The notes below the pieces were generated by a model. It saw nothing but the letters and a program-made list of their open reading frames with translations, was not told where the DNA came from and searched no databases. Source: Deltaproteobacteria bacterium (GTDB taxonomy: Bacteria; Lernaellota; Lernaellaia; JACKCT01). From it: a stretch of 64,000 nucleotides of DNA. The stretch is taken from contig JADLEX010000047.1 in the NCBI GenBank assembly GCA_020845895.1, positions 13,073 through 77,072 on the forward strand, read 5' to 3'. The position numbers and the translations under genes were made by a program. Shown piece after piece: positions 2,888 through 63,493 of the stretch (the stretch's first letter is position 1; every line of letters begins with the position of its first letter).

Positions 2888-3994
2888 ATGAATTTTGCGA
2901 AGGTTTCCGTTTGGCGATTCGCGATGCTCGCGACCTTGCTCGCGTCCGTGACGATCGGTTGCGGCGACGATGACGACGACGATTCCGAGCCCGGCGATGA
3001 CGACGCTGCCGACGACGATGTGTCCGATGACGATACGGAAGACGACGACACGGGGGACGACGACACGGCGGACGACGATACGACAGATGACGACACCGGC
3101 GACGACGACACGGCGGACGACGATACCGACGACGACACGGCCGACGACGACACGGCCGATGACGACACGACCGACGACGACACCGGTGACGACGACACGC
3201 AGATCGCGTGCGAAGACCTGATCACACCCGAACTCGTCGAGCCCGAGGTTGTGGAAATTCCCGCGGGGACGTTCACGCAGGGCAGCCCCGAGGAAGAACT
3301 CGGCCACTCGAGTCTGGAAGAACAGCGCGAGGTCACGATCTCGAAGGCATTCTACATGATGAAGTATGAGGTCACGCAGTCGCTGTGGCTCGCGGCGATG
3401 GGCGAGATCAATCCCTACCAGGTGGAGTGCGGCGACAACTATCCGGTCACGGTGGTGCGTTGGATGGACGCGGTCGAATTCGCGAACCTGCTTTCGGTCG
3501 AATTCGGCTACACCGAGTGCTACGAGATCGGCGAGACGAGCGCGACGTGGGACACCGACTGCACCGGGTTTCGCCTGCCCACCGAGGCCGAGTGGGAATA
3601 CGCCGCGCGCGCGGGCACCGACACGGCGTTTTACAACGGTGACATCGTCGATCCCGGCTGCGCCGACGAGGGGTTGCTGGACATCGCATGGTACTGCGGC
3701 GCGGGATACTCCGCGCATGAGGTCGGCCTGAAGGATCCCAACGCGTGGGGCCTGTACGACATGCTGGGCAACGCTTGGGAGTGGGCGTTCGACGGCTACG
3801 ATGCCGAGCCGTACAATTACGACCCCGCGGGCCCGGTGACCGACCCCGTCGCGCCGGGCACGTTGGCGCGCATCTATCGCGGAGGTTCGATGTACGCTTA
3901 CGCGGCCAACTGCCGCGCGGCGTATCGGCGGCTCGCGCTATCGACCTACATGGACGAGGACAACGGCGTGCGGCTCGCGCGCAACAAGCCGTAG
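2888..3994 (+). CDS. lipoprotein with poly-Asp/Thr linker and FGE-sulfatase (SUMF1/DUF323) family catalytic domain
   Basis: ATG at 2888 follows in-frame upstream ORF start at 2843; lipobox TIGC; ~75-aa (DDDTx)n linker; C-terminal domain has RWMDAVEF..., GFRLPTEAEWEYAARAG, GNAWEW, RGGS motifs characteristic of formylglycine-generating-enzyme fold. Confidence 0.75.
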   Translation: MNFAKVSVWRFAMLATLLASVTIGCGDDDDDDSEPGDDDAADDDVSDDDTEDDDTGDDDTADDDTTDDDTGDDDTADDDTDDDTADDDTADDDTTDDDTGDDDTQIACEDLITPELVEPEVVEIPAGTFTQGSPEEELGHSSLEEQREVTISKAFYMMKYEVTQSLWLAAMGEINPYQVECGDNYPVTVVRWMDAVEFANLLSVEFGYTECYEIGETSATWDTDCTGFRLPTEAEWEYAARAGTDTAFYNGDIVDPGCADEGLLDIAWYCGAGYSAHEVGLKDPNAWGLYDMLGNAWEWAFDGYDAEPYNYDPAGPVTDPVAPGTLARIYRGGSMYAYAANCRAAYRRLALSTYMDEDNGVRLARNKP

Positions 3995-7586: not shown

Positions 7587-8858
<1,272 letters not shown>

Positions 8859-8902
8859 GCGTCCTCCTCACCCGGCGCTTCCGCGTGCGCCGGGGCGGGA
8901 AT

Positions 8903-9523
8903 TCATTTCGCCTCGCCCGGCTTGTCGCCCGGCTTTTCGCCCGGGGGCCGCTGCGCCAAAACCGCGTCGATCACGCCGTAGTTTTTCGCGTCCTCGGCGC
9001 TCATGAAATAGTCGCGGTCCGAATCGCTCTTGATCTTCTTCACCGTCTGTCCCGTGTGCGACGCCATGATGCGGGCAATCTCGTCCGCGGTCTTAATGAT
9101 CTCGCGGGCGTGAATGTCGATGTCGCTCGCCTGACCTTGCATGCCGCCCATCGGCTGGTGGATCATCACCCGCGCGTGCGGGAGGGCGAACCGCTTGCCC
9201 GGCGCGCCGGAGGCCAGCAGCACCGCGCCCATGCTCATCGCCTGGCCCATGCAGATCGTCGAAACCGCCGGCTTCACGAACTGCATCGTGTCGTAGATGG
9301 CGAGCCCGGCCGAAACCGAACCGCCCGGCGAGTTGATGTAGAAGTGAATGTCGGCCGCGGGGTCTTCGCTCTCCAGAAACAGCATCTGCGCGATGATGAG
9401 ATTCGCCACGTTGTCGTCCACCGGCGAGCCCAGCATCACCACGCGGTCCTTGAGCAGGCGCGAATAGATGTCGTACGCGCGTTCGCCCCGGTTCGTCGAT
9501 TCGATCACCATCGGAATCAGCAT
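8903..9523 (-). CDS. clpP: ATP-dependent Clp protease proteolytic subunit ClpP
   Basis: 206 aa; catalytic Ser context [11 protein letters not shown], His motif MIHQP; tig-clpP-clpX order. Confidence 0.95.
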
Positions 9524-9675
9524 CGTGCCACGGCCCCTTCGGCGTTTTCGCGTTCGCTCACCGTTCCAGTCTCGAAACCAATCTAGCGCACGAACGCGAA
9601 AAAGCGAACACCTCGGCGGCGGCGCATTTATGCGTTCTCCAATGTTTTCGTCGTTTTTTCGGCGGACTTGACGAC

Positions 9676-26588: not shown

Positions 26589-26661
26589 GGGCGGATAGCT
26601 CAGTTGGCAGAGCAGCGGCTTTACACGCCGCGGGTCGCAGGTTCGAGCCCTGTTCCGCCCA
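26589..26661 (+). tRNA. tRNA-Val (anticodon TAC)
   Basis: cloverleaf folded by hand: acceptor GGGCGGA/TCCGCCC, D-arm GCTC-AGTTGGCA-GAGC, anticodon stem GCGGC/GCCGC with loop TTTACAC, T-loop TTCGAGC, discriminator A; CCA not encoded. Confidence 0.85.
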
Positions 26662-55179: not shown

Positions 55180-56808
55180 TCAAGGCAGCAACGATCGCTC
55201 GAACAGCGCGTACTCCCGGTCGAGGTGGCGATACGTCCCCGCGACGCTCCACGCATCGCCTTGCCCCAAAAACGCGGGTGCGTCGAAGTCCTGCGGCGCG
55301 ATCAAATACGCCGCGTCCTCGATCCACTTCTCGGGCGGGCGCAGCGTTTCCGACGCCCAGTACATCGCGAGGCGTCCGTCGGTCTCGAATTTCACATCCT
55401 TGATCTCGACGTTCGCGCCGTCGCGCAGCAGCGTATACGTCAGCGGAAACGCGAAGGGGTGCTCCACGTCGCTCACGCCAGTCGGAACATTCAGGAAACG
55501 CACCACGATCATCGGGCGCTCGCGCCCGCGCGCCGCGTCGCCGAGCCGCGAGCACACTTCGTCGATTTGCGTCGATTCCCACGTGCGCGGCGGGCCGATG
55601 TGCAGATCCTGCTGGTAGTCGAACGCCGTCCAACGCACGCCCATCGGGTTTGCCCACCAGCCGTTCTGATTAAGCCAGTCGCGGGGAATCGCGTTCGTCG
55701 CCATGCCGAGCCACCCCGCGAGCGCGACACCGACCACCGCGATGTGCGCACCCGTCCGCCATCTCGCGCGAGGAATCGCCGCGAGGCCGGCCGCCATGAC
55801 CGCCGCGAATCCGCACGCCCACGGGGCGACGTAGTGCGCGAGTTTCCAGTCGAGGCATGAAAACACGAGCCACGGCAGGGCGAAGAACGCCGCGAGGTGC
55901 GCCCGCGCGGGACTTCGCCGCGCGAAAACCCAGATCGCGGCGACGACAAAAATCGGAAACAGCCACGGCCCGAGGCCGATGTCCGCCACCGTGAACGGAT
56001 AGAACATCGCGTTGTTCCACGACCAGATCGGCTCGCCCGCGAGATTGCCCGCGAGCGTGACGCGAATCGCGCCACCGCGGATCTTGTTCGCGAAGTTCAC
56101 GCCGTACCACGTCAACGCAATCGCGACGGAGACGCCCGCCGCGATGGCGAGGTTCGCGAACTTCGCGCGTCGGCGCGTCGGACTCGTCTCGCAGATCATG
56201 GCGACGAATTCGACGAGCGACGGCCCCAGCAGCAGAATCGGGAAGTTGTCGCGCGTCAGCGTGCCGAGCCCCGCCGCGACGCCGAACGCGAGCGCGCGGC
56301 GCCGGTCGGAAAAGGACTGCGTTTCGAGAAGCAGACGAAACGCCATCGCCACCATGCCGATCGACGCAAAGTCGAGCATCGCCATGCGCGAAAGACCCCC
56401 CGCGAGGGGGAGCGTGGTGACGAGAATCGCCGCGACCACGCCCGCGCGGCTCGAGCGCGTCAGGTGTCGCGCGATGCCGTGCGCGCCCCACACGAGCGCC
56501 GCGTGAAACGGGATGTTCGCGGCGATGTCCACCTGAATCGACGGCCCGAAGACGTGATGCAGCGCCGTGGCGACGAGGTAGTAGAGCGGCGTATAAACCC
56601 CGCCCCAGATCTGCCCCGGGCCGTGCCGCCACGTCCACATGATCGTCTGAAGGTGGCCGACCTCGTCACCGTACAGCCGCGTGGCCATGTGCGACGTGAA
56701 CCACGCGTTGACAAGCGCCTGCGCGGCGACGATCGCGACGAGGGCGATCCACGCGCGGTCCGGCGTGGGCGCGGACTCGTCAGGTGGTGGGGGGATCGCC
56801 TTCGTCAT
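55180..56808 (-). CDS. GT-C fold membrane glycosyltransferase, family 39/83-like (PMT/ArnT-type), paralog 2
   Basis: multi-TM; loop-1 YGDEVGH motif; similar topology to 17611..19170. Confidence 0.6.
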   Translation of the reverse strand: MTKAIPPPPDESAPTPDRAWIALVAIVAAQALVNAWFTSHMATRLYGDEVGHLQTIMWTWRHGPGQIWGGVYTPLYYLVATALHHVFGPSIQVDIAANIPFHAALVWGAHGIARHLTRSSRAGVVAAILVTTLPLAGGLSRMAMLDFASIGMVAMAFRLLLETQSFSDRRRALAFGVAAGLGTLTRDNFPILLLGPSLVEFVAMICETSPTRRRAKFANLAIAAGVSVAIALTWYGVNFANKIRGGAIRVTLAGNLAGEPIWSWNNAMFYPFTVADIGLGPWLFPIFVVAAIWVFARRSPARAHLAAFFALPWLVFSCLDWKLAHYVAPWACGFAAVMAAGLAAIPRARWRTGAHIAVVGVALAGWLGMATNAIPRDWLNQNGWWANPMGVRWTAFDYQQDLHIGPPRTWESTQIDEVCSRLGDAARGRERPMIVVRFLNVPTGVSDVEHPFAFPLTYTLLRDGANVEIKDVKFETDGRLAMYWASETLRPPEKWIEDAAYLIAPQDFDAPAFLGQGDAWSVAGTYRHLDREYALFERSLLP

Positions 56809-57022
56809 CCTCTTCCGCGTGTTCTTCCCGTTTCTGTTCGATGACGTGCCGCTTGGCCGGTGAAATGATGGATTCGAGTTCGAGCATGGCGAGCGCCGCC
56901 GTGCCCGGCGACGCCTTCCTCTTTCGCCAGTAGATCCAACCGCGCGCCTCCGCGGCCAGCAACAGGCGGTCCAGTACGAATGCCGCGGCGAGCACGGCGA
57001 TCACGATCAGCGCGGTCCTCAT
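56780..57022 (-). CDS. small membrane protein (80 aa) overlapping start of GT39-like gene
   Basis: MRTALIVIAVLAAAFVLDRLLL TM helix then acidic tail; 29-nt overlap suggests translational coupling; weak. Confidence 0.35.
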   Translation of the reverse strand: MRTALIVIAVLAAAFVLDRLLLAAEARGWIYWRKRKASPGTAALAMLELESIISPAKRHVIEQKREEHAEEDDEGDPPTT

Positions 57023-57130
57023 GACGCACCCCGCCCGGCGCGAACCGCGCCGACACGAAAGCATAATCACGGACCGGCGCATTGGCCACCGGTGGGAAAA
57101 GATTTTGGCCCGCGCGCCTCGCAAGCCACG

Positions 57131-57162
57131 AAAAAAGTTCTTGACAATATGGGGGGGGGGGG
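57131..57162 (+). promoter_or_regulatory. sigma70-like promoter with G12 homopolymer in the -35/-10 spacer (TTGACA-atat-G12-cgtt-TATTAT)
   Basis: read directly; spacer 20 nt as assembled; 60 bp upstream of RBS AAGGAGAG + ATG 57224. Confidence 0.4.
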
Positions 57163-57223
57163 CGTTTATTATCGAAAAAGTCAAAACGGCAGCCGGGCGC
57201 AAGACCCGAGAAGGAGAGCGGCG

Positions 57224-57502
57224 ATGACGGTGCATATTTATTCGGACTTCGCGGCGGGCAACGACGCGTGGGACGGCAGTCAGGCCACCTCCGGCGGAGG
57301 CAGCATCGGCCCGAAAAAGCACATCAACGCCGCGAAAGCCTTGGTGACGAACCCCGTGGAGGATGAGGTCATTATCCACGTCGCGGGCGACACGGCAAAC
57401 CCCGGTAACCGGAACCCCCAGCGTCCCACAGGCACCAAGATCAATACTCTCATGGCAGACCACACTACCAACGATAAGGATGATTGCTATGAAAGCGCGT
57501 AA
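57224..57502 (+). CDS. short ORF resembling only the N-terminal ~60 aa of right-handed beta-helix (pectate-lyase-like) proteins; possible gene remnant
   Basis: YSDFAAGNDAWDGS...P..INAAKALV...GD.VIIHVAG matches beta-helix N-cap consensus; strong RBS; only 92 aa; low-GC. Confidence 0.4.
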   Translation: MTVHIYSDFAAGNDAWDGSQATSGGGSIGPKKHINAAKALVTNPVEDEVIIHVAGDTANPGNRNPQRPTGTKINTLMADHTTNDKDDCYESA

Positions 57503-58235
57503 TCATGCTATATTGTTATGTGTGACGGCCATTGCGATTCTTACTTGTGCAAAAACGAGCGCTTGGGCCACGTCATGGGCTGCAAGTACAGATGAGCTGA
57601 CGTCACCCTCGTTTCTAGCATCGCATTCCGTCGGTGTATTTCGTGGAACCGTTGTCTCGATCGATTATCGGACCGTTGCCACCCCTTCCGGAGGAAGTTA
57701 CGCGTATACCATAGTCCGATTTACTGTTACTGAACAGTACGCCGGATCGGATACGGGTCGAGAAAAGATCATCTACGTTGCTGGCGGGCAGAACGGCGAA
57801 CGTCGTCAGGCCATAGCTGGCGCACCTTCTTTTAACGTAGATGATGATGTTGTGGTTTTCGAAGGAAGTTCAAACCATTGGTTGTTCGGCTCCTCGTTCG
57901 GTATGCATGGGGTATTCCGATTCATTAAGGGCGAAACCGACTTGATCGTCCTAAACAACAATGGTTTTCCAGTCACTGCTATCAACAACGCAAACATTTC
58001 TGTCAAAGAGGACTACCGGTGCGAGTTGTCTCTGGATAGGAAACACTGTGACGCATGGACTTCAGCAGACGCATTGGATACCAAGACAACCAAAGAGCTT
58101 GAGCCCATGTTGGTCAACGCTACGGACTTCGAAAATGACATCCGCGATATTGCAAAAAACACCGCTCTGGCTCCCTCCCGGCCACTGTCGGGGACAGAAT
58201 TCGTCGAATTCCTTAAGCATTTTGTTGCGAATTGA
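57489..58235 (+). CDS. secreted hypothetical protein
   Basis: signal peptide MKARNHAILLCVTAIAILTCAKTSAWA; start overlaps previous ORF by 14 nt; low GC. Confidence 0.5.
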   Translation: MKARNHAILLCVTAIAILTCAKTSAWATSWAASTDELTSPSFLASHSVGVFRGTVVSIDYRTVATPSGGSYAYTIVRFTVTEQYAGSDTGREKIIYVAGGQNGERRQAIAGAPSFNVDDDVVVFEGSSNHWLFGSSFGMHGVFRFIKGETDLIVLNNNGFPVTAINNANISVKEDYRCELSLDRKHCDAWTSADALDTKTTKELEPMLVNATDFENDIRDIAKNTALAPSRPLSGTEFVEFLKHFVAN

Positions 58236-58259
58236 CACACTCACAGAACGAAGGAGGAA

Positions 58260-59405
58260 ATGTCCATGCGAGCACCTAATGCGAAAATCGTCGCGTTGTC
58301 ATTCGCGTTGTGTGTGCTGTCAATTCTATTGTCTCCACAATCGGCCGCTGCTTGGGTGTGGTGGACAATCGACGGTTGTCCGGTCGCTTGGGATGCGAAT
58401 CCGACAATCCAAATAGACGTCGGCCCCGGGGATTTTTATAATATGATTCAACGAGAGGCGGTGAGCCATCCGGCAGCGAGAATCGGCGCGGTGAACGATT
58501 CTTGGATCGACATCAATTTGGTAACCACGACATCAACCGGCTCGGATAACGGTGAAAGCGAAATTTGGATGGCACCTCTTCCGGATGGTACGCTCGGCCT
58601 GACGATGATGGATATCGGCGCATATTGCGAAATTTGGGAAATGGATATCAAGATCGCCGATGACGTCGATTGGATATGGGGCATTCCAACAACCGTCAGG
58701 GATCCGTATCCGTTTGGCGACGGTGGCGACTTTTATGCCAGACCCGTCATTATCCACGAGTTGTTGCACGGCGTTGGACTCGATCATACGACCTCTGACT
58801 TTGGATACATGCATCCCACTGTTTCGTCTGGTTCAGTGCTTTTCACAAATAGGGACGACAACAAACGCGTGGAGCCCGCGCCTAAAGAACGTCAAGGACT
58901 TCGGACGATTTACCCCCAAAGCGAAACCGAAACCGATCTGGCGATAGCAAACAACATTTGGCCGAATGACGTTGGGACTGGCGACATCAAAAATTATAAA
59001 CTTTGCAGACCCGCATATGGCTTACATTGGGCTGGCAAATTCGATCAATATTGCACGACTGCGGAAATCCACTCAAATCTCTGCCCTGGCGATTTTGTCA
59101 AGGTTCGCGTCCCCGTCATGAACTACGGCCACAGTTCTGCAACCTACAATTTGGAAATGTGGTTTTCAATCAACGACCCTTGGGGGTCCGGTACGGACCA
59201 GGAATCGCCGACAGTCCGCTCGGCGACGACCGGCGCTGTTAGCACCACACTCGTAGAGACCTCGTTTGAGATCCCATCGACCGTCTCAAACGGACAAAAC
59301 TACTACATAATCATGCGAGTCAAGCCGATCGCCAACGAGGAATCCACTATGAACAACTGGATGCCGATGCGCGGGTTGATCGGCATCGGAACCGAATGTC
59401 CATGA
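58260..59405 (+). CDS. secreted metzincin zinc metalloprotease (HExxHxxGxxH + Met-turn)
   Basis: signal peptide; VIIHELLHGVGLDHT zinc-binding consensus and downstream SDFGYMHP Met-turn; low GC. Confidence 0.75.
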   Translation: MSMRAPNAKIVALSFALCVLSILLSPQSAAAWVWWTIDGCPVAWDANPTIQIDVGPGDFYNMIQREAVSHPAARIGAVNDSWIDINLVTTTSTGSDNGESEIWMAPLPDGTLGLTMMDIGAYCEIWEMDIKIADDVDWIWGIPTTVRDPYPFGDGGDFYARPVIIHELLHGVGLDHTTSDFGYMHPTVSSGSVLFTNRDDNKRVEPAPKERQGLRTIYPQSETETDLAIANNIWPNDVGTGDIKNYKLCRPAYGLHWAGKFDQYCTTAEIHSNLCPGDFVKVRVPVMNYGHSSATYNLEMWFSINDPWGSGTDQESPTVRSATTGAVSTTLVETSFEIPSTVSNGQNYYIIMRVKPIANEESTMNNWMPMRGLIGIGTECP

Positions 59406-59431
59406 CAAGCGGTCTAAGACAGGAGAAGATC

Positions 59432-59722
59432 ATGAAATATGCCATTTTGACGGCGGCACTGACCATAGTTTTGATCGGCTGTGACAGCGGCGACGACGAT
59501 GACGACGACCAAGCCGCCTGCAGCGGACTGTCCCAGGAGGGCGAAGAATGCCTTGATCGATGCGGTGAGGAACGTGAAGCGTGCGAGAAGGATTGCGCAG
59601 AGACCGCAGAAGATGTTTTGATGTGCGAGTCAGAATGTGGGCCTGTCTACGATAAATGTTATAATGAATGCTACGAAAAATTCCCTGCCGCAGAGCAATG
59701 TGTGGACACAATTGCCACATGA
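59432..59722 (+). CDS. small Cys-rich lipoprotein with poly-Asp linker
   Basis: MKYAILTAALTIVLIGC-DSGDDDDDDQ; 12 Cys in ~75 mature residues (CxxxC / ExC pattern). Confidence 0.5.
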   Translation: MKYAILTAALTIVLIGCDSGDDDDDDQAACSGLSQEGEECLDRCGEEREACEKDCAETAEDVLMCESECGPVYDKCYNECYEKFPAAEQCVDTIAT

Positions 59723-60085
59723 GTGTGGCGGAAAATGTGAGACAGAAACCGCCACGACCGGTGCGACCTTTTTGGATCTGTACAGCAGCCACTTCAACCA
59801 AATCCTGAACCGGCGGCACGAGCGGATTCAGGTCGACAAGGCCATCGACGCAACGATCGTTGGGCAGAAGATTGGTACCGTGCCTACGCGGCTTGCCCTT
59901 GCGTCGATTGGCGCAAATCGGTGAAAGTCAATAGTCGCCCCTGAAAAATGGCATTAACTGGCTGAAATCACTGGACAAAATATCGTTTTCGTGCTGGTTC
60001 TTTTCACCGGGAATAAGGCATATCAACGCACGAAACCTGCGATTCGACGGGCTCACCACGTCCTGAGGTTCTCGAAGAACGGTGG

Positions 60086-60460
60086 GACGATTCCTAGGAC
60101 GATTCTTGACGATTCTTGGACGATTCTTGGGACAAGATACAGAACTCGTCGAACCGAACCGCCGGGCTACGACGAACGCGTGTTTCGCCGCGACGAACGA
60201 CGGCTTGAACGCGTAGCATTCCTTGACGGGCTTCCGGCTGCACCGCGAGTGGCGACGGCGGCACACGCAACGGCCCGCGCGCTGCCCCTGCGGCACGGAC
60301 GTCGTGGCGACAGCCCGCGCGCTGCCCCTTGCGGCACGGACGTCGTGGCGACAGCCCGCGCGCTGTCGCTTGCGGCACTGACATCGCAACGCGCACGGGC
60401 GCTTGTGGCACTGATGTCGCAACGCGCACGTTCGCTCGCGGCACGGATGCCGCAATAGAG
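60086..60460. repeat. tandem repeat block at right edge of low-GC island: 4x GACGATTCyTrG (60086-60131) then five degenerate 35-45-bp units CTTGCGGCAC(G/T)GA...
   Basis: read directly; opposite-strand ORF 59928..60506 here is not considered coding. Confidence 0.55.
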
Positions 60461-60529
60461 ATCCCGTAGCGCGGCGCGGCGATTTCCGCTTGAATCGCGG
60501 CTCCACGTTTTTCGCGCGCAGGATCGCCT

Positions 60530-62128
60530 TTGGCCGACGCCGCCCGACCCCGATACACCCTCGAAGCGGCCCTCGCGTTCGTCCTGTTCGCGTGCGCGGG
60601 CCTCGCGATCATCTGGGCCACACGCACGCACCTCGTCGTCGGCTGCGAATCGGACGGCCACTACATCATGGCCGGGTACGTGCGTTGCGGGGAGATGGGC
60701 CTGTACGTGCAGATGGGCAAGGGCACGTGGCCGTGGCTGTATCCGTTTGTCGTCGGCCATCTCGCGGGAATCATCGGCGCGGCCACGTACTGGGTCGGCA
60801 AGTTCGTGACGCTCGCGGCGGGGGCGGGGATCGTGGCGCTCGTCGCACACGCCGCGTCGCGCGAGATTCCCGGTCGCGCGCGGTGGATCGCGCCCGTCGT
60901 CGTCGCCGCCAATCCGCAGTTCCTGATGTATTCGACGCTCGCGTCCACCGACGTCTTCGCGGCGCTGTTCGTGGCGCTCGGGCTGTGGTTCGGCGCGCGC
61001 GCGGCGGCGCACGACGGCGGCCCGCGCGACGCGGCGCTCGCGGGAGCGGCCTGGGCGATCGCGGGGCTCGCGCGCTACCAATACGTGCCGCCCGCGCCGT
61101 TCGCCCTCGCGGCGATCGCCTTGGCCGTTCCGAGCGTCCGCCGCCGTGGGCCGATGATGGCCGGCGCGTTCGCGCTGGCGTGGCTCGGTGTCTCGTCGAT
61201 CGGTCTCGTCGGCGGATTTGCAAACCTGTCCGATGCGTTCGGTTGGTCGCAGGTGCTCGGGCGCGCGGAGAACATCCCCAACAGCGTGGGCGCGCTGGAT
61301 TGGTCTTTGAATTCCGCATGGCGCGTGGTGAAGGCGTACGCGCTGGCCGTCGATTTCGTCGCGTGGCACGTGGCGTATTACCCGTTGCTCGGGCTCGTCG
61401 CGTTTAGCGTGGCGGCGCGGCGAAACGTCTGGCGGCTGCGTCAGCTCGCGGCGGTCGGCATTCCGCTCACGGCGTATTTCGTGGCCGTTGGGTGGTTCGT
61501 GTCGATGGACGGCAACACCGATCTGCGCCGCGTGTTCTTGCCCTTCATCCCCGCGACGGCGGTGGTTTTCGCGGCGGGGGCCGAGCGGGTATTGCGGTCT
61601 TCCGGCGCGCGGTTCGTCGGCTGGCTGCTCGTGCCCACGCTCGTCGCGTTTCACGTCAACGGCTTTTTTATCGAATACCCGCTTCTGCATGTCTGGCCCG
61701 AGGGGCACCCGGTGGCGGCGCGGCACGCGTGGACCGGCCAGTGTCTTGTGCGCAGCATTCAGTGCCCGGCGCCGACGGAGGAGATCGAGGAGGTTCGCAT
61801 CGCGCGCGAGTTCGCCCGGCGTGAGCAACCCGGTTGTCGGCTCACGGTGACGAACTCGGTTCCGGCCTCGATTGAGCTGCCGCTCGCCTACGCGTGCCCG
61901 CCGGGCAGCCCGCCGTGCGAAAAGGACACCGGCCTCGACAACGCGGCGATGGGCAAGCTCGTCGAGCACTTCGCGTCGCGCGAGCCGGCGCGTTTCGTCC
62001 TCGAGTTTCCGCAAGAGGGGACGACGCGATTGACGCCTGGCGAGGCGATCGGATCGCGCGGACTATTCGAGCTGACCGAAAAGCCGCCGGTTCCCCCGGC
62101 GCGCGTGTTCGAGATCGATCCGCGCTGA
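60530..62128 (+). CDS. GT-C-like polytopic membrane protein, paralog 3 of PMT/ArnT-type glycosyltransferases
   Basis: multi-TM N-terminal half with CESDGHY loop motif, soluble C-terminal domain as in other two paralogs. Confidence 0.55.
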   Translation: MADAARPRYTLEAALAFVLFACAGLAIIWATRTHLVVGCESDGHYIMAGYVRCGEMGLYVQMGKGTWPWLYPFVVGHLAGIIGAATYWVGKFVTLAAGAGIVALVAHAASREIPGRARWIAPVVVAANPQFLMYSTLASTDVFAALFVALGLWFGARAAAHDGGPRDAALAGAAWAIAGLARYQYVPPAPFALAAIALAVPSVRRRGPMMAGAFALAWLGVSSIGLVGGFANLSDAFGWSQVLGRAENIPNSVGALDWSLNSAWRVVKAYALAVDFVAWHVAYYPLLGLVAFSVAARRNVWRLRQLAAVGIPLTAYFVAVGWFVSMDGNTDLRRVFLPFIPATAVVFAAGAERVLRSSGARFVGWLLVPTLVAFHVNGFFIEYPLLHVWPEGHPVAARHAWTGQCLVRSIQCPAPTEEIEEVRIAREFARREQPGCRLTVTNSVPASIELPLAYACPPGSPPCEKDTGLDNAAMGKLVEHFASREPARFVLEFPQEGTTRLTPGEAIGSRGLFELTEKPPVPPARVFEIDPR

Positions 62129-62581
62129 TTTTCCGGCCCCGCCCGCGCCATTTCGGCAACCGTTTCGACCTCGGGGACGAAGTCCCCAGCACGTTCGGAT
62201 ACTTGCGGGGAAAACCGAAGAATCGTTCTTAAGGGTTGTCGGTCAACACCTTGAAAAGGGGAGGAAATTTCTCGCTGAGCCTTCGTTCATTCTGGACCTC
62301 GAATATCCAAGGAATCCGTTTGAATCGTCGCTCAAATGCAACACTGGTGTTGCAAAAAAGCGACAGCGGCCGAAAATCAGCCGGAAACGGTTTTAGGAAG
62401 CCCATGTGGACAGGGTTCGTAAGGGCATGGAATCGCCCATGAATCCGGGATCGGCGGGCTGGACGATCAAACCAATCGGTATGGCACGCGGATTGCTCAG
62501 TCCCTTAAACCGTTGGATTTTGAATTTTCGGGATTTGCCTTTTTCGGGAGCGGTGGAGAGATGCGAATCGCAGGGGCTCGA

Positions 62582-63493
62582 ATGAACGGGCAACACACGC
62601 TGAACGCCTCGGTGACCTGCCGCGGCGTTGGGCTTCACACGGGCTGCCCGGTGAATCTGACGGTTCACCCGGCGCCCCCCGATACCGGCATTCAGTTCGT
62701 CCGCACGGATCTGGAAGGCCGCCAGCGGGTCAAGGCGGGTCCCGAGACCGTCACGAGCACCAGCTTCGCGACGACCGTTTCGGGCCGCGGCTTTTTCATC
62801 TCCACGGTGGAGCACCTCATGTCGGCTCTTGTCGGCATGGGCATCGACAACGCCACGGTCGAAATTGACGCCGAGGAAGTGCCGATCATGGACGGCTCCG
62901 CCGCCCCGTTCGCGCACCTGTTCGCGGGCGTCGGACTCAAGACCCAGTCCAAGCTTCGCCGCTACATGATGATCACCAAGCCGGTCGTCATTCGCGAGGC
63001 CGACAAACACGTCGCGCTCTATCCCTACGACGGCTTCCGCGTCGAATACGAGATCGAATTCGACCACGCCTTCATCGGTCGCCAGTCGTACGCGATCGAC
63101 TTGGACCCGGATGCGTATTTGCGCGAGGTCGCCCCGGCCCGTACGTTCGGGTTCCTCAACGAACTCGCGATGATGAAGGCCAACGGCTTCGCCGCCGGCG
63201 GCAGCCTGGACAACGCGATCGTGCTCGGCAACTTCAACGTCATCAACAAGGGCGGACTGCGTTACCCGGACGAGTTCGTTCGCCACAAGATTCTCGACGC
63301 GGTGGGCGATCTGTTCATGACGGGTCTGCCGGTGCTGGGACGCCTCGTGGCGTTTCGCAGCGGGCACGGCCTCAACAATCGCCTCGCGCGCCGCTTGATG
63401 ACTGAAACCGGAAGCTGGCGCATCGCCGAATTCCCGAGCGAGCGTGAGCAATCCTTTGCCGCCGAGGTGGCCGTCGCGGCCTGGGCGCGCTGA
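62582..63493 (+). CDS. lpxC: UDP-3-O-acyl-N-acetylglucosamine deacetylase
   Basis: GVGLHTG, STVEHL, MDGSA, RTFGF, HK(I/M)LDA(V/I)GDL motifs; start MNGQHT chosen by alignment to E. coli LpxC N-terminus. Confidence 0.9.
   Translation: MNGQHTLNASVTCRGVGLHTGCPVNLTVHPAPPDTGIQFVRTDLEGRQRVKAGPETVTSTSFATTVSGRGFFISTVEHLMSALVGMGIDNATVEIDAEEVPIMDGSAAPFAHLFAGVGLKTQSKLRRYMMITKPVVIREADKHVALYPYDGFRVEYEIEFDHAFIGRQSYAIDLDPDAYLREVAPARTFGFLNELAMMKANGFAAGGSLDNAIVLGNFNVINKGGLRYPDEFVRHKILDAVGDLFMTGLPVLGRLVAFRSGHGLNNRLARRLMTETGSWRIAEFPSEREQSFAAEVAVAAWAR

Follow-up and report, generated by a model that had tools for sequence, protein, structure and literature searches.

The window analysed here, the whole 64-kb stretch of contig JADLEX010000047.1 from the metagenome-assembled genome (MAG) IT350 of a Deltaproteobacteria bacterium, contains a cassette of foreign composition that two close relatives do not have at this position. 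It encodes a secreted protease (C) with an M10-like metzincin fold, a secreted partner (B) that is linked to the protease in other genomes and has a predicted fold resembling that of TIMPs (tissue inhibitors of metalloproteinases), and a Cys-rich lipoprotein (D). Judging from the models, the cassette looks like a bacterial version of the pair of matrix metalloproteinase (MMP) and TIMP; by analogy with known systems, its genes would be co-transcribed and B would bind and inhibit C. The best explanation as a whole, a foreign B-C-D cassette in a variable slot with B as cognate inhibitor of C, is given a slightly better than even chance. The island as such is ordinary, while its content is more interesting than a first-pass annotation of the same DNA had seen. 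The main features are the following (positions are those of the window):

57096 to 60462: variable segment of 3367 bp; synteny with the two relatives stops at about 57095 and restarts at about 60463
57489 to 58235, + strand: gene B, 248 amino acids, Sec (SPI) signal peptide ending SAWA (followed by TSW), unannotated family
58260 to 59405, + strand: gene C (IT350_06130), 381 amino acids, Sec signal peptide ending SAAA (followed by WVW), metzincin domain
59432 to 59722, + strand: gene D, 96 amino acids (alternative start at 59396), lipobox LIGC, poly-Asp linker and four CX3C motifs

Composition of the segment

In 1-kb bins, the GC content is 0.55, 0.51 and 0.53 between 57 and 60 kb, while every other bin of the window lies between 0.60 and 0.73, which makes this the sole low-GC stretch of its kind in 64 kb. 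At finer resolution, the drop extends from about 57400 to 60050-60130. The core (57400 to 60050) has a GC content of 0.513 compared to a background mean of 0.651 (standard deviation 0.018; 277 windows of 2.6 kb, size-matched to the core), corresponding to a z-score of -7.9, and its strand-symmetrised tetranucleotide profile is 10.7 standard deviations away from the background (z = 10.7). For the two long genes, the GC content at third codon positions (GC3) is 0.52 and 0.59, compared to 0.80 (standard deviation 0.07, minimum 0.61) in the 36 other long frames of the window. The drop in GC content and the A/T-rich third positions described in the first-pass annotation were borne out by these sliding-window and codon analyses; the GC content of the flanks, estimated there at about 68%, is about 65%. 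Genes B, C and D were found where that annotation had placed them, all on the + strand. They are tightly packed, as it had noted, with a Shine-Dalgarno sequence of the AGGA/GGAG type ahead of each gene and a 14-nt overlap of B with a small upstream open reading frame (ORF A).

The variable segment as a whole is mosaic in GC content (57096-57399, 0.595; 57400-60084, 0.514; 60085-60462, 0.661). The left 300 bp and the right 380 bp look host-like, and the foreign part comprises 57400-60084 only. Its end forms a low-GC tail (59723 to 60084) for which ORF listing and family searches gave no convincing gene; a 95-amino-acid ORF overlapping D (59637-59924) had no matches in family searches or among the other loci.

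A hypervariable slot between two glycosyltransferase genes

A search with the glycosyltransferase of the left flank found two relatives, L001 from a genome collection and L002 from metagenomes. Three flanking genes were compared:

55180 to 56808, - strand: GT-C/PMT_2-family glycosyltransferase, conserved left flank (86% amino acid sequence identity in L001, 81% in L002)
56780 to 57022, - strand: small membrane protein of 80 amino acids, conserved left flank, present in both relatives
60530 to 62128, + strand: second GT-C/PMT_2-family glycosyltransferase, conserved right flank, on the strand of the slot genes

Both relatives are collinear with the window on both flanks at about 84-88% nucleotide identity, and in both the homology breaks at window position ~57095 and returns at ~60463. 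The slot in between is filled differently. In L001 it comprises 1836 bp (GC 0.62) with a gene for a 537-amino-acid secreted FG-GAP-repeat protein (7958-9574; Pfam E 1e-49, seven repeats), in L002 only 619 bp (GC 0.57) with a 123-amino-acid orphan, cytoplasmic-looking ORF (3281-3652). In all three genomes the slot genes are oriented like the downstream GT-C gene, and homologues of B or C are found nowhere on the contig of L001 or L002. The slot is hypervariable, with unrelated genes exchanged among genomes that are about 85% identical. Acquisition of the low-GC genes by horizontal transfer, rather than descent as part of the core genome, is well supported, in agreement with the first-pass annotation: the composition is deviant, the genes are absent from the slot in both syntenic relatives (not present there in all relatives, as for a core region), and the B-C pair recurs elsewhere in unrelated contexts, often again as a low-GC patch. 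The precise and shared breakpoints suggest that the slot content is replaced by homologous recombination in the conserved flanks.

The usual marks of a mobile element, the lack of which weighs against an acquisition of this kind, were not found. No integrase or transposase gene is present in the variable segment (ORF list and Pfam), no terminal direct or inverted repeats or transposon-like ends were found at it, and no tRNA target adjoins it; the sole Rfam match in the window is a tRNA at 26589. Compared to a classical genomic island, the segment thus has the deviant composition and the absence from close relatives, and lacks integrase, tRNA and flanking repeats.

The protease C is M10-like

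C contains the zinc motif HELLHGVGLDH (HExxHxxGxxH) at residues 166-176, in which H166, E167, H170, G173 and H176 are invariant or nearly so among 30 homologues, and a Met-turn (GYMHP; family consensus YSxMNY) aligning with the Met-turn region of MMP-14. The family consensus of the catalytic domain reads HELLHxxGLxHE…YSxMNY…PLPDDRxGLRxLY. C itself scores 16.8 bits with Pfam Peptidase_M10, under the gathering cutoff of 24, and 24 of the 30 family members match this family (E<=0.01, best 2e-9). In a search of PDB, the family profile retrieved MMP-14/16/1/13 as well as serralysins, with alignments to the MMPs spanning the zinc motif, the Met-turn and the last helix, DDxxG(I/L)xxLY. The AlphaFold (AF2) model of C (pLDDT 88.8) gave Foldseek matches to the catalytic domains of MMP-9/10/13/16 and karilysin with target-normalised TM-scores of 0.62-0.70, and also to serralysins, so that the secreted metzincin named in the first-pass annotation is supported by motif, Met-turn and fold.

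The C-terminal half of the model matches Ig/Fn3-like sandwiches. In the family, this domain contains conserved Cys residues (VCPGD…NYGT…WFSTD…EESxQNNWIPLRG), and its motifs are presumably like those of CARDB-type Ig domains; Pfam gave a sub-threshold match to GEVED only. Between signal peptide and HExxH lie about 135 residues (an N-terminal subdomain), with neither a prodomain nor a cysteine-switch motif of the PRCGxPD type. Taken together, the motifs and the model make C most likely a prodomain-less, divergent M10 (matrixin-like) zinc endopeptidase with a C-terminal Ig-like/CARDB-like beta-sandwich. The myxosortase-dependent metalloproteases of NCBIfam were considered and rejected (15.6 bits, cutoff 250); C is placed outside that family since the weak match spans the zinc-motif region only.

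A word-indexed protein search with C returned only its own entry in the Deltaproteobacteria bacterium MAG, and an exhaustive HMMER search returned 193 cluster representatives. The best of these share 36-42% identity over the full length and stem from Deltaproteobacteria/Myxococcota MAGs and metagenome contigs. The roughly 190 representatives of the C family are mostly labelled 'hypothetical'.

The partner B has a TIMP-like predicted fold

The product of 57489-58235 was a secreted protein, as annotated before, and the search for a named family that had been proposed for it yielded none (Pfam, NCBIfam, PHROG and PADLOC). Word-indexed searches found the entries of its own MAG, and a search with the B alignment added one homologue. 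The predicted structure of B is a TIMP/NTR-like barrel with OB fold, i.e. an NTR architecture, with an N-terminal segment of roughly 20 residues ahead of it and C-terminal helices after it. The top six Foldseek matches are all TIMP-2 or TIMP-1, and TIMPs are the best structural matches by two methods. Further matches are NTR folds as well (agrin NtA, PCOLCE, complement C345C); among the fold relatives listed are C345C of C5, C4 and C3, the NTR domain of meteorin and hookworm ES-2. Only two Cys residues are conserved in the B family, C178 and C187, both located after the barrel, and the predicted mature N-termini of its members differ (TSW, LSF, VVW, HEF, MSW, DLC, VSY). Because a sequence link and the Cys framework of TIMPs are both missing, B is TIMP-like in its predicted fold without belonging to the TIMP family. 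As far as the model goes, what the first-pass annotation left as an unnamed secreted protein is a partner conserved along with the protease and predicted to fold like TIMPs.

The B-C pair in other genomes

The contexts of eight protease homologues were compared (L003, L004, L005, L006, L007, L010, L013 and L014; L007 has the identical copies L008/L009, and L010 the identical copies L011/L012). A secreted protein of 244-271 amino acids is encoded directly upstream of the protease in seven of these eight loci, and in eight of nine contexts when the window is included. In L003, L006 and L010 the stop codon of the B homologue overlaps the start of the protease gene, compared to a gap of 24 nt in the window. 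The upstream proteins are homologous to B, as indicated by BLASTP (E = 7e-22 against L003_B), by a hidden Markov model (HMM) built from five B sequences (1e-49 for L007_B, 2e-41 for L010_B) and by a later B HMM, which recognised the upstream fragment in L014 (5.6e-12). No terminator-like site is located between B and C; the only one on the + strand of this region lies inside B (57804-57822), and the total in the terminator scan is not above the shuffled expectation. The partner is adjacent to the protease, on the same strand and conserved with it across genomes, as in operons of a protease and its cognate inhibitor. With L010, annotated as Longimicrobium (Gemmatimonadota), the pair is found in more than one phylum. 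The genes around the cassette differ in every locus, and so does the contrast in GC content to the flanks:

Window: cassette 0.51, flank 0.65
L003: cassette 0.544, flank 0.648
L004: cassette 0.475, flank 0.569
L005: cassette 0.494, flank 0.614
L006: cassette 0.547, flank 0.555
L007: cassette 0.613, flank 0.652
L010: cassette 0.708, flank 0.720

Because this contrast differs among the loci, the set comprises recent copies as well as ameliorated ones. The same values bear on the least probable explanation considered here, namely that the low GC content does not stem from transfer at all and reflects an assembly chimera or a native region held low by selection. A MAG as source and a poly-G tract near the left junction would fit a chimera, and the low GC content of the cassette in several other hosts would fit an intrinsic constraint. 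A chimera, however, needs two precise joins exactly at the synteny breaks of both relatives, and low GC content is not intrinsic to these genes, as the copies in L006, L007 and L010 are host-like. Furthermore, a second B gene in the same MAG is richer in GC and shares only 27% identity with that of the window.

This second B gene is located on another contig and is >90% identical to L007_B. Because the MAG holds such an L007-like gene, the low-GC copy in the window is regarded as a xenologous second cassette and not as the lineage's resident one. The second gene is annotated as two fragments of 146 and 91 amino acids (P0163/P0164, IT350_00280/00285), and in a KJ042 MAG the same gene is split likewise (47 and 228 amino acids); the split annotations could reflect a frameshift, decay to a pseudogene or a mistake in assembly. 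Directly downstream of the L003 cassette (L003 7503-7757), an 85-amino-acid protease-like fragment (E 1.9e-12) was observed, the position and sequence of which suggest that a second copy has decayed there or that recombination has left a scar.

D is homologous to the third gene product of the closest cassettes, L007_D (E 1.5e-10) and L003_D (E 4e-9). All three have a lipobox, an acidic tether (DSGDDDDDD after LIGC in D) and four CX3C motifs; D contains 11 Cys residues in total. Other loci encode different lipoproteins or Cys-rich acidic proteins at this place. Since the third position varies in this way, the core of the cassette consists of B and C, with an exchangeable third gene. D may serve as an accessory protein tethered to the membrane or as a releasable substrate.

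Relation to known systems

The cassette is a variant of known systems in which a secreted metzincin is paired with a co-encoded partner or inhibitor. The closest one is Mtz-Tim of Listeria monocytogenes (LMRG_00713/00714; Boichis et al. 2021), a TIMP-like lipoprotein encoded beside a secreted metzincin (PMC8235301). Here as there, the protease gene adjoins a gene for an exported protein that is TIMP-like in predicted structure and not in sequence, and the pair moves between genomes together. The differences concern gene order (protease before TIMP-like protein in Listeria, TIMP-like protein before protease here), protein type (a lipoprotein in the case of Tim, a protein with an ordinary signal peptide in the case of B, the lipoprotein of this cassette being a third, unrelated CX3C protein), and hosts, which are Gram-negative environmental lineages in the present case. 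In addition, the Listeria pair is prophage-borne and under the control of a CI/Cro switch; a link to phages was not found in the present case.

A phage-derived pair assisting lysis as in Listeria, left in a prophage remnant and acting on the producer's cell wall, was also considered. That the only published bacterial pair of metzincin and TIMP-like protein is phage-borne (PMC8235301) and that the cassette is clearly mobile speak for such an origin. Against it, A to D had no matches in PHROG or PADLOC, the protease had neither a tblastn match in 50,697 phage records or in plasmids nor a relative in IMG/VR, phage genes are lacking in all nine contexts, the order of the two genes is the opposite of that in Listeria, and B, unlike Tim, is no lipoprotein. 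This origin is rated as very improbable.

With animal MMPs and TIMPs (MEROPS M10A and I35), C shares the zinc motif, the Met-turn and the C-terminal DDxxGxxxLY helix, and B the predicted OB-fold NTR module with its N-terminal segment. Unlike animal MMPs, C has neither a cysteine-switch prodomain nor a hemopexin domain and carries an Ig-like C-terminal domain instead; in B, Cys1, the CxC motif and the six cysteines of the TIMP N-domain are missing, a helical extension is present at the C-terminus, and there is no sequence homology to TIMPs.

The potempins of Tannerella forsythia are encoded immediately upstream of, and co-transcribed with, their KLIKK peptidases, including PotA and the MMP-like karilysin (PMC9890683). 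The arrangement of B and C is alike, with the partner directly upstream of a secreted peptidase and stop and start codons overlapping or nearly so, and karilysin is among the fold matches of C. Potempins, however, are outer-membrane lipoproteins of 98-132 residues with other folds (PMC9890683), and KLIKK peptidases differ from C by their prodomains and the C-terminal domains for type IX secretion.

In the serralysin/Inh system (AprA-AprI), a metzincin is co-encoded with a periplasmic beta-barrel inhibitor, the N-terminal trunk of which is inserted into the active site; in apr operons the inhibitor gene is located downstream of the protease gene, unlike B upstream of C. Similar to the present pair, a metzincin has a co-encoded partner, and serralysins are found among the structural and profile matches of C. 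C lacks the RTX domain for type I secretion, though, and the fold of Inh is an 8-stranded barrel in contrast to the OB/NTR module of B.

A possible inhibitor role of B

Latency of secreted metzincins is normally ensured either by a prodomain or by an inhibitor encoded alongside. Since C has no prodomain, an exported protein with the fold of MMP inhibitors is encoded upstream of it and bacterial precedents exist, a role of B as inhibitor is favoured. In the proposed mechanism, the ~2.7-kb cassette B-C-D would have been inserted into the hypervariable slot between the two conserved GT-C genes, landing within earlier slot content and leaving ORF A as a local leader or remnant. B, C and D would probably be transcribed together with ORF A from a resident promoter carrying a tract of 12 G (G12), giving rise to three exported products: the protease C, the TIMP/NTR-like OB protein B and the lipoprotein D, anchored in the membrane with its acidic tether. 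Made in step with C from the common transcript, B would act as a periplasmic or extracellular inhibitor and shield the producer's envelope until C is released, comparable to TIMP/MMP, Inh/serralysin and potempin/karilysin. By this analogy, the chances that B inhibits C, or keeps it latent, as a stoichiometric and translationally coupled factor are about evenly balanced. The stronger proposal, that the B family comprises bacterial, sequence-orphan TIMP-fold proteins that are true tight-binding inhibitors of co-mobile, prodomain-less MMP-like proteases, is put forward tentatively and at clearly lower confidence.

Several observations speak against an inhibitor role. TIMPs chelate the catalytic zinc through their N-terminal Cys-x-Cys and a disulfide set, neither of which is present in B, and NTR modules also serve as enhancers or binding modules. 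Among 11 B members, no TIMP/NTR match was obtained in Pfam even at E<=10, the B family profile retrieved nothing relevant from the PDB sequences, and L013, the most distant protease of those compared (23% identity), has no B upstream. The TIMP-like protein of Listeria, moreover, is a substrate of the metzincin and not a demonstrated inhibitor (PMC8235301).

B might instead be a partner of the protease without inhibiting it, i.e. a substrate or pro-effector, an enhancer or recruiter, or a folding or secretion chaperone replacing the prodomain. Precedent for an enhancer is the NTR domain of PCOLCE, which enhances the activity of BMP-1 or recruits substrate for it, and non-inhibitory modules (PCOLCE itself, agrin NtA and complement C345C) are among the NTR-fold matches of B. 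The missing N-terminal Cys, the cleavage of Listeria Tim by Mtz, after which a fragment acts on the cell wall (PMC8235301), and the missing prodomain of C, which may create a need for a foldase, point in the same direction. On the other hand, an inhibitor gene directly upstream with translational coupling is a documented pattern of cognate inhibitors (PMC9890683), and TIMPs themselves are the best matches of B by both methods. A non-inhibitory partner is considered unlikely, though less so than any of the other alternatives to the inhibitor reading.

Upstream region, repeats and flanks

The remaining features of the variable segment are located upstream of B and at the right end:

57141 to 57172, + strand: sigma-70-like promoter candidate upstream of A and B-C-D (TTGACA at 57141-46, 20-nt spacer, TATTAT at 57167-72)
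57224 to 57502, + strand: ORF A (IT350_06120), 92 amino acids, no signal peptide, strong Shine-Dalgarno sequence, host-like GC3 of 0.75
60085 to 60130, + strand: 11-bp tandem repeat GGACGATTCTT, four copies, exactly at the transition from low to high GC content
60267 to 60455, + strand: degenerate tandem array of about five units of 41 or 33 bp, each with GCGGCACKGAYRTCG, inside the variable segment

The poly-G tract reported in the first-pass annotation is real. G12 (57151-57162) is the sole homopolymer of at least 8 nt in the 64 kb and lies within the spacer between -35 and -10, which is 20 nt long because of the tract; loss of two to three G would bring it to the optimal 17-18 nt. A homopolymer in this position is the classic layout of a slipped-strand switch. 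The TTGACA-G12-TATTAT site, not called by a promoter scan allowing spacers of 16-18 nt, is a putative promoter by its sequence, and its layout is suggestive of phase variation through the tract, described before as variable expression. Upstream of the L003 cassette (L003 5150-5195), a putative promoter with a run of nine T between TTGCCT and TACAAT was found; among cassettes of this type it is the second case of a homopolymer in a promoter spacer, perhaps by coincidence. On the minus strand, a terminator-like hairpin (57106-57128, nine pairs and a T-run) is located between the G12 promoter and the left breakpoint and may serve as an insulator for the divergently oriented gene of the small membrane protein.

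A phase-variable surface or virulence module, switched by slippage of poly-G in the promoter, would fit the spacer geometry, the strong depletion of other G or C runs in the window (maximum 6) and the export of all products, a property that the first-pass annotation had assigned to the entire island and that holds for B, C and D. However, G12 could be an artefact of sequencing or assembly with two-colour chemistry, and other cassette copies lack a comparable tract (none in L007, only the T-run in L003). Nothing connects these genes with a host or with virulence; they stem from an environmental MAG, searches of phage, plasmid and defence libraries gave no matches, and the earlier term 'virulence-type' is not retained. 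Such a module is regarded as more doubtful than a non-inhibitory partner.

ORF A is an orphan (singleton cluster) with no homologue in the other cassette loci, and may be a 5' remnant or leader of an earlier slot occupant. Its previous assignment as a beta-helix remnant had to be dropped. No Pfam match was found at E<=10 and no significant one in NCBIfam, the best PDB sequence match (E 0.86) was to left-handed hexapeptide proteins, and there is no similarity to a Pel9A-like beta-helix protein encoded 2.3 kb from the L006 cassette (L006 1571-2932).

The tandem repeats, formerly described as bounding the island, exist on the right side only and lie within the variable segment. In the window and all other loci searched, GGACGATTCTT occurs only at 60085-60130, with copies spaced 10-12 bp apart, i.e. 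by about one helical turn, as is typical of response-regulator sites; as a lead only, the array resembles one for OmpR/PhoB-type binding. The second array is located 75-260 bp upstream of the right GT-C gene, and its 15-bp core GCGGCACKGAYRTCG, present five times in the array, was found neither at other places of the window nor in the other loci. Two of these copies fit a sigma-54-like -24/-12 pattern (GGCAC-N5-TCGCA), which is found nowhere else in the window and for which 0.32 matches are expected by chance; these putative sites are likewise a lead only. The right GT-C gene's own promoter must lie inside the variable segment. The start codon of this gene in the relatives is ATG (MAAP…), while the window has ATC (60490-60535 region), so that a canonical start codon first occurs 12 codons downstream, with the TTG at 60530. 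Between the GT-C gene and an lpxC-like gene there is another, smaller dip in GC content (62000-62600; 0.52-0.57), which gave no Rfam match; because both relatives retain this DNA with 84-88% identity, it is a native intergenic region rather than an insert.

Implications

At the level of the genome, the slot between the two GT-C glycosyltransferase genes is a small recombination hotspot, at which close relatives swap genes for exported proteins without visible mobility machinery. TIMPs are treated as an animal family in the reviews consulted, and the authors of the Listeria study found no other bacterial TIMP-like proteins (PMC8235301); in the literature searched, the phage-borne Tim is the sole bacterial TIMP-like partner of a metzincin reported. 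The cassette described here is an independent, Gram-negative case, conserved in at least two phyla and without annotation; B has no Pfam family. B and C represent a directly testable two-protein system and may provide new scaffolds for inhibitors directed at MMPs. If the stronger proposal of tight-binding inhibition is true, a prokaryotic MMP/TIMP system would circulate among Myxococcota-like and Gemmatimonadota bacteria as a small cassette without integrase, the inhibition would proceed without the canonical N-terminal cysteine and hence by a new binding mode, and the finding could be relevant to the question of how the NTR/TIMP module of metazoans originated in evolution.

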